Assembly (NCBI RefSeq): GCF_003334385.1
Contig: NZ_QOWN01000170.1
Direction: 5' to 3' (one strand)
Length of the DNA: 525 nt
Source: Escherichia coli
GTDB taxonomy: Bacteria; Pseudomonadota; Gammaproteobacteria; Enterobacterales; Enterobacteriaceae
This document shows positions 1 through 525 of this stretch, piece by piece. The first letter of the stretch is position 1. Each line of letters opens with the position of its first letter. A program made the translations under genes and the position numbers. The notes beneath the pieces are model-generated. The model ran no database searches and was not told the DNA's origin. It was given only the letters and a program-made list of their open reading frames with translations.

Positions 1-525
1 CGGAAGGGGTGATACGGATGCACGACGAGCGGACCCACCACTACGACAGCCAGCACCGCCTGGTGTTCTACACGCGGATACAGCACGGCGAACCACAGGT
101 GGAGAGCCGGTACCTCTATGACCCGCTGGGCCGCCGGACGGGAAAACGGGTATGGCGGCGGGAGCGTGACCTGACGGGGTGGATGTCGCTGTCGCGTAAA
201 CCGGAGGTGACATGGTACGGGTGGGACGGTGACAGGCTGACGACGGTACAGACCGGCACCACGCGTATCCAGACGGTATACCAGCCGGGGAGCTTCACGC
301 CGCTCATCAGAATCGAAACAGAGAATGGCGAACAGGCGAAGGCGCGGCACCGGAGCCTGGCGGAGGTGTTGCAGGAGGACACGGGTGTGACGCTCCCGGC
401 GGAGCTGGCGGTGATGCTGGGGAGGCTGGAGCGGGAACTGCGCGCGGGAGCGGTGAGTGCGGAGAGTGAGGCATGGCTTGCGCAGTGCGGGCTGACGGCG
501 GAACAGATGGCCGCGCAGATGGAGG
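1..525 (+). CDS. Rhs-family YD-repeat protein, internal fragment of the conserved core (partial at both ends; reading frame begins at position 3)
   Basis: Frame +3 is open across the entire window (174 sense codons, no stop). The translation contains YD-repeat motifs ([33 protein letters not shown]) and the stretch [24 protein letters not shown]...[18 protein letters not shown], which I recall as closely matching the E. coli Rhs core; this is memory, not a search. Third codon positions are strongly G/C-biased (about 83% by my manual count, G-ending codons dominant), which supports this frame as coding. Internal ATGs (18-20, 183-185, 414-416, 507-509, 519-521) are not starts because the frame is open upstream to the window edge. 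I cannot tell which paralog (rhsA/B/C/D-like) from this fragment, so no gene symbol is given. Confidence 0.9.
39..71 (+). repeat. Degenerate YD-repeat (Rhs repeat) motif, protein level: [11 protein letters not shown]
   Basis: In-frame peptide [11 protein letters not shown] fits the loose YD-repeat consensus (YD followed a few residues later by R-L-hydrophobic). It is a protein motif, not a nucleotide repeat. Confidence 0.55.
108..140 (+). repeat. YD-repeat (Rhs repeat) motif, protein level: [11 protein letters not shown]
   Basis: In-frame peptide [11 protein letters not shown] is a near-exact match to the Rhs/YD consensus RYxYDxxGRL(T). This is the best-conserved repeat in the window. Confidence 0.75.
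213..245 (+). repeat. Degenerate YD-repeat motif, protein level: [11 protein letters not shown]
   Basis: In-frame peptide [11 protein letters not shown] is a YxYDxxxRLT variant with Y replaced by W; the same aromatic-x-aromatic-D ... RL(T) register as the other two motifs. Confidence 0.6.

Follow-up and report, generated by a model that had tools for sequence, protein, structure and literature searches.

A 525-base fragment of an Escherichia coli rhs core gene with a rare six-base contraction in a YD repeat

Here, we identify with high confidence a 525-base stretch of Escherichia coli DNA (hereafter the window, meaning all 525 bases) as an internal fragment of the GC-rich core of an E. coli-type rhs gene, which encodes the last shell hairpins of the Rhs protein and a helical segment and which has undergone the rare loss of one ACCACT unit. 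What it covers is a stretch of a common E. coli Rhs effector gene that is conserved, structural and already known; the closest relatives of the window are vgrG-linked rhs genes that end a T6SS cluster beside yafV-ivy-fadE. Toxin, immunity and cleavage sequences are all absent from it. The part on view is structural shell and, as an initial annotation made from the letters had stated, belongs to the conserved and not the novel part of the system. We located the following features, all on the plus strand:

3–524, plus strand: internal rhs core coding fragment of 174 codons in frame +3, corresponding to residues 973–1148 of the 1,506-residue vgrG-linked Rhs protein of E. coli ETEC1749.
3–323 (residues 1–107), plus strand: predicted last YD-repeat β-hairpins of the Rhs shell, from AlphaFold2, PDB sequence alignment and Foldseek.
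33–65 (residues 11–21), plus strand: YD repeat that is two residues short, with a single ACCACT at nucleotides 37–42, where relatives read ACCACTACCACT (HHYHYD).
105–146 (residues 35–48), plus strand: canonical YD motif, from residues invariant in 19 homologues, and the sole stretch touched by Pfam RHS_repeat.
213–245, plus strand: degenerate YD-type motif (WYGWDGDRL), which aligns with FGWDGDR of Tse5.
324–515 (residues 108–171), plus strand: helical segment of 64 residues with five helices predicted by AlphaFold2.
471–509 (residues 157–169), plus strand: conserved 13-residue block (AWLAQCGL) within the helical segment, from conservation in 19 homologues.

The window has a GC content of 66%, and its frame +3 (nucleotides 3–524) reads through 174 codons without a stop. 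GC content by codon position in this frame is 0.68, 0.48 and 0.83 for positions 1, 2 and 3, and frame +3 was open in 0.45% of 2,000 dinucleotide-preserving shuffles. The openness of frame +3, the difference between third and second codon positions (0.83 versus 0.48) and the family match described below all exceed chance. Frame −2 is likewise stop-free over the full window, and minus-strand ORFs of 88 and 55 residues are listed, which is the case for a real gene on that strand. We consider such a gene next to impossible. The openness is compositional, because the plus strand is purine-rich and minus-strand stops are rare, and in 26% of shuffles one or more of the six frames were open, compared with the 0.45% for frame +3; moreover, the minus-strand translations are low-complexity strings of Pro, Ala, Ser and Arg, and homology and annotation fall exclusively on the plus strand. 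The minus-strand ORFs were therefore rejected as compositional. An Rfam search covering both strands of the window at E-values up to 1 returned zero families, and Tandem Repeats Finder reported a trivial two-copy repeat of 9 nucleotides at 450–468 and nothing else.

The family assignment is carried by a profile model, DNA identity and fold search, since Pfam is nearly blind in this region. The NCBIfam model RHS_core (NF041261) matched the window translation over profile positions 968–1148 of 1261 with E=3.8e-101 and 339.7 bits, a score to be read against a whole-protein cut-off of 2,000 bits that is out of reach for any fragment of 174 residues; a full-length relative, separated from the window by one substitution and a 6-bp indel, scored 2,509.6 bits. 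The Pfam RHS_repeat search that the initial annotation had proposed proved nearly uninformative, giving a non-significant best match of E=5.2 at residues 35–47 and no other family, so that of the profile checks it was the NCBIfam model that supported the proposal. At the protein level, a search of 5.8 billion proteins yielded 241 matches at E<=1e-20, the named ones almost all Rhs fragments, from E. coli, E. albertii, Salmonella, Citrobacter and Pseudocitrobacter. At the DNA level, the window matched 3,721 of 5,426 complete E. coli genomes, at a median of three places per genome and almost always on the chromosome, and its best matches (98.9% by BLAST) overlie genes annotated as ‘RHS element core protein’. 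The proposal that the window lies inside an Rhs core gene is thus upheld by the profile match, by annotated near-identical genes and by protein matches that Rhs sequences dominate; a 174-residue search empty of Rhs or YD-repeat matches had been named as the outcome that would overturn it.

Many vgrG-linked rhs copies equal the window base for base where directly aligned, apart from one 6-bp indel. Among annotated E. coli ‘RHS element core proteins’, WP_097346590.1 of strain 510016 and WP_187002336.1 of strain G1/2 are identical to the window but for this indel, and WP_235392020.1 of ETEC1749 differs by one substitution in addition. The exact 525-base window was absent from the 5,426 complete E. 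coli genomes, and a single complete-genome record at >=99% identity, which does not outrank the full-length 98.9% matches, is presumably a partial alignment. A 50-mer spanning the single ACCACT copy had no match in species-representative genomes or JGI metagenome contigs, and a plasmid search likewise lacked the exact window, its best matches being at most 95.7% identical. Because the exact sequence was found in no collection, the context, tip, immunity gene and integrity of the source gene are extrapolated from relatives.

Inspection of the frame +3 translation located the YD motifs and the conserved 13-residue region that the initial annotation had pointed out, and confirmed its reading that both a DPxGL motif and a stop are absent from the frame. 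Using the YD-repeat consensus Y-x-Y-D-x-x-G-R-L, we found repeats characteristic of an Rhs core in the window, including (H)HYDSQHRLV. Across 19 homologues, residues R36, Y37, Y39, P41, G43, R44, R45 and K48 of the canonical motif are invariant, as are W71, Y72, W74, G76, R78, L79, T80 and T81 around the degenerate motif. In the AWLAQCGL block, C162 and G163 are invariant in the same 19 homologues and W158, L159, L164 and T165 are conserved in at least 90%.

To describe the fold, we used an AlphaFold2 model of a 324-residue segment around the window, built with 35 homologues. Its mean pLDDT of 67 and pTM of 0.41 make the global geometry unreliable, and the low pTM is expected as the model is an excised arc of a shell. 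Residues 11–144 of the model are predicted to form β-hairpins, residues 145–208 fold into five helices (block-mean pLDDT about 73–89), and β-strands resume from residue 218. The top 15 Foldseek matches in the PDB were Rhs effectors and one BC component of an ABC toxin (Tc-type), with E-values down to 6.9e-12; named top matches include Tse5, RhsA (7q97), Tse15, Salmonella bongori Rhs, TcB/TcC and teneurins. A PDB sequence search aligned window residues 1–107 with shell residues 900–983 of Tse5 (8cp6) and with S. bongori Rhs. Together, the model and Foldseek point to a YD-shell (β-cocoon) fold outside the helical segment.

The helical segment is rich in Ala, Glu and Leu and is flanked by two blocks conserved in all Rhs proteins: FTPLIRIE of the last shell hairpin before it and KLHLYHCDHRG of the Rhs-associated core domain, just beyond the window, after it. 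Between them lie 72–76 residues in the E. coli-type family, compared with 2–31 in the three best-aligned solved Rhs structures: 31 in Tse5 (982 to 1013), 2–3 in S. bongori Rhs (957 to 960) and about 3 in Pseudomonas protegens RhsA (1178 to 1181). This difference indicates that the window's second half encodes helices inserted in a lineage-specific manner, directly ahead of the domain responsible for plugging the cocoon and for C-terminal cleavage. In a sequence search of the PDB no chain matched the segment, and it is missing from the three solved shells that we compared residue by residue. Within enterobacterial Rhs proteins the segment is conserved, with R117, L119, A120, C162 and G163 invariant; it is part of the conserved core, which has long been known, and is no peculiarity of this window.

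Comparison with known systems shows what the window has in common with each and where it differs. The vgrG-linked Rhs proteins near yafV-ivy-fadE have the same frame and GC-rich core as the window and differ in reading HHYHYD where the window reads HHYD. The K-12-type RhsA–E paralogues and the Rhs proteins of Salmonella, Citrobacter and E. albertii have the core, the helical segment and the WLAxCGLT motif in common with it at 57–80% amino acid identity; they are more diverged than the closest relatives, and all keep the two-unit Y-x-Y-D form. Many of these K-12-type and enterobacterial Rhs genes are not adjacent to vgrG. The solved T6SS Rhs effectors, Tse5 (8cp6), P. protegens RhsA (7q97), S. 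bongori Rhs (8qjb-d), Tse15 (8uy4), RhsP (8h8a) and Photorhabdus Rhs1 (7pq5), share with the window's family the shell of YD β-hairpins, the Rhs-associated core domain and the DPxGL site; in alignments to them the matched stretches lie to either side of the helical segment, which is covered by no solved structure. Only distantly related in sequence are the Tc-toxin BC components (TcdB2-TccC3, 4o9x; YenB/YenC2, 4igl) and the teneurins, which have the same YD-shell fold with a C-terminal Rhs-associated core at 12–15% identity in structural alignment, and whose delivery systems differ from those of Rhs proteins.

The sole difference between the window and otherwise identical rhs copies is an in-frame loss of 6 bp, in which two ACCACT units have become one and HHYHYD has become HHYD. 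Where relatives read CCC-ACCACT-ACCACT-ACGAC, the window carries a single ACCACT. The two-unit Y-x-Y-D form is retained in every diverged homologue, indicating that the single-copy state is derived. It is also rare: only four of 3,650 E. coli records that match the window's first 100 bases have a single ACCACT, and these four represent two other sequence backgrounds. Three are the pig isolates ETEC1749, ETEC4085 and rl0044, which match the first 100 bases exactly and carry the contraction in a second tandem paralogue, rhs2, that differs from the window at 8 sites. The fourth is the human isolate strain 100181, a gapless match at 96% over the first 100 bases, whose single-copy allele differs from the window at 16 sites (97% identical). 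Given its presence in the window, in rhs2 and in strain 100181, three or more backgrounds have gained the contraction, whether anew or by transfer, and it most likely originated by replication slippage at a 14-nucleotide tract with a periodicity of 6 nucleotides.

A sequencing or assembly error, with the common HHYHYD as the true allele, would also account for the missing unit, and errors are commoner in short tandem repeats of the kind in which the difference falls; the exact window, moreover, occurs in no collection that we searched. We regard this as improbable. The loss amounts to exactly one repeat unit and preserves the frame, and the same contraction is found in four finished genomes in two other backgrounds, which argues for a real, recurrent polymorphism. 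As a side observation, its occurrence in four finished genomes (window 37–42; for comparison, positions 9037–9048 of locus L001, 12037–12042 of L002 and 6537–6542 of L011) suggests recurrent slippage or gene conversion.

To view the gene in its setting, we sampled ten loci with 0–1 mismatches to the window apart from the 6-bp indel. Their gene order is hcp-vgrG-rhs-125-residue ORF-ISAs1 (H-rpt), with or without dsORF-h1-rhs2, and then yafV-ivy-fadE; the rhs genes encode 1,499–1,506 residues. The initial annotation had suggested looking upstream for vgrG, PAAR or Eag-type chaperone genes. In the relatives, vgrG ends 75 bp before rhs and the Rhs N-terminus, MGGGKPAARQGD, includes a literal PAAR sequence, on which the Pfam PAAR model returned no match in the relative's Rhs protein; the gap of 75 bp leaves no room for an Eag-type chaperone gene. 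An intact relative contains DUF6531 at residues 50–127, YD repeats, PF03527/TIGR03696 at residues 1184–1261 and the cleavage motif PVQRGDPLGL from residue 1252. A regular-expression search of the relatives for the N-terminal cleavage motif PVxxxxGE found it absent, the nearest sequence being PVNPLLGA.

The downstream landmarks fell where the initial annotation had placed them. With the window equivalent to residues 973–1148 of the relative and the motif at residue 1252, PVQRGDPLGL starts 104–105 codons past the window end, as it does in all ten relatives, within the predicted 100–200 codons; the tip of 245 residues and the 125-residue ORF that follow it lie at about 0.34–1.45 kb, matching the predicted 0.3–1.5 kb beyond the 3′ edge. 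An extension lacking a DPxGL motif and a variable C-terminal domain had been named as counterevidence, and, judged from the ten relatives, both are present. GC content in the relative falls from 60–69% in the core to 38–45% in the tip and immunity region, and a GC-rich core next to an AT-rich tip is the classical Rhs pattern (PMC2935791); the high GC of the core is seen in the window itself, and the drop at the tip in relatives only.

In four of the ten loci (strains 300709, HKUOPY1, CP61_Sichuan and ET896) rhs is 5′-truncated or a pseudogene. We observed that the T6SS cluster upstream of these four copies has decayed: tssM, tssJ, tagH and vgrG are partial, and an IS1 has inserted (L001:4693-8304, L006:1047-3708, L008:1-6419 and L010:6265-6435). 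The tip and the 125-residue ORF are still intact in the loci with 5′ loss of rhs. The window might accordingly be read as part of such a remnant, a pseudogene or dissociated core, and not of an intact, expressed effector gene. Besides the four truncated or pseudogenized copies beside decayed T6SS clusters, this reading draws on two of them in which the rhs remnant begins about 85–90 nucleotides upstream of the window position, and on the known occurrence of core fragments joined to displaced tips at rhs loci (PMC2935791). We hold it to be a possible but minority explanation: the frame is fully open with no sign of decay within the window, and, the in-frame indel aside, the window is identical to the intact genes of 510016, G1/2 and JP538.

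Alternatively, the window could derive from some other rhs paralogue or from a recombinant, for instance the second tandem copy or a copy at another locus, with a tip other than the one of 245 residues. The single-copy ACCACT does occur in rhs2 of the three pig strains, which bears a different tip (PIRYTDPLGL followed by 153 residues), E. coli genomes have a median of three matching places, and tips are exchanged between cores (PMC2935791). The window, however, agrees with rhs1 at each of the 8 sites within it where rhs1 and rhs2 differ, one tip is common to all ten rhs1-type copies, and the single-copy allele of strain 100181, at 97% identity, carries the same tip family. On balance we judge such an origin unlikely, to about the degree of a decayed remnant. 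Separately, we noted that the region downstream of rhs2 differs between strains, with ORFs of 72 and 58 residues in ETEC1749 and ETEC4085 in place of one ORF of 130 residues in rl0044 (L002:13303-13694 versus L004:13303-13695), and that the rhs2 tip comprises 153 residues in the pig strains versus 218 in strain 300709, which suggests frameshift variation in the rhs2 tip and immunity module.

All ten relatives carry the same type of C-terminus, a tip of 245 residues after PVQRGDPLGL (L002:5783-6517, and likewise in L001 and L003–L010); the rhs1-type junction reads PVQRGDPLGL-SGETLVLGSATT... and is followed by the ORF of WP_001077738.1. Tip residues 24–175 are similar to the CdiA-CT tRNase of uropathogenic E. 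coli over its N-terminal two-thirds (5j5v, 5j43 and 8zyc; E about 1e-7), a region that in CdiA-CTs corresponds to the cytoplasm-entry domain (PMC9424206). The last ~90 residues belong to a family of their own, for which we counted 64 homologues, located at the ends of Rhs and haemagglutinin-type proteins from Escherichia, Salmonella, Yersinia, Gilliamella, Vibrio and Neisseria. Its motif, LYRPNAKVGSGSTADAVRxELATGxxVGGxxHxQKA...NPTASPGDRAAAENV, includes invariant G-S-T and K residues and a near-invariant H. AlphaFold2 predicts the terminal domain to be all-α with a pLDDT of 94, and we obtained no Pfam, NCBIfam or PDB assignment for it. The candidate immunity ORF, WP_001077738.1, encodes 125 residues (L002:6520-6897), is identical in all sampled loci and begins at the final base of the rhs stop codon, giving an overlap of one base; it had zero matches in NCBIfam, the PDB and precomputed Pfam results. 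For the window's own copy, tip and ORF are leads, and their probable linkage to it rests on the relatives.

Published structures and genetics of Rhs systems allow a mechanism to be proposed by analogy (10.1101/2024.02.26.582050; PMC8765631; PMC8636562). The complete Rhs protein would form a closed β-cocoon around its own C-terminal toxin and cleave itself after DPxGL, with the fragments remaining associated; the particle would be mounted on VgrG and fired by the T6SS into neighboring bacteria, while the small downstream immunity protein would shield the producer. New tips are gained by recombination within the conserved core, and cores evolve uncoupled from tips (PMC2935791), so the window's copy could have a different tip. 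By the same analogy, the window is the kind of sequence that would serve as a recombination substrate for tip exchange. We further offer a proposal in two parts, doubtful when taken whole: the helical segment may act as a functional module (a VgrG docking surface or a toxin-release gate, for instance) and not as a passive loop, and, separately, the tip most likely linked to this core would end in an unnamed all-α toxin domain that is common to Rhs and haemagglutinin/CdiA-type proteins and whose activity appears uncharacterized.

As a near-copy of an annotated and widespread E. coli gene that covers only a conserved structural part, the window has little discovery value. It does show that predicting the position of the tip from core landmarks is accurate. 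Two features, neither of them specific to this window, could interest Rhs specialists: the mostly helical insertion of 72–76 residues before the protease/plug domain, and the confidently folded all-α domain of the linked tip, which stands outside assigned families.
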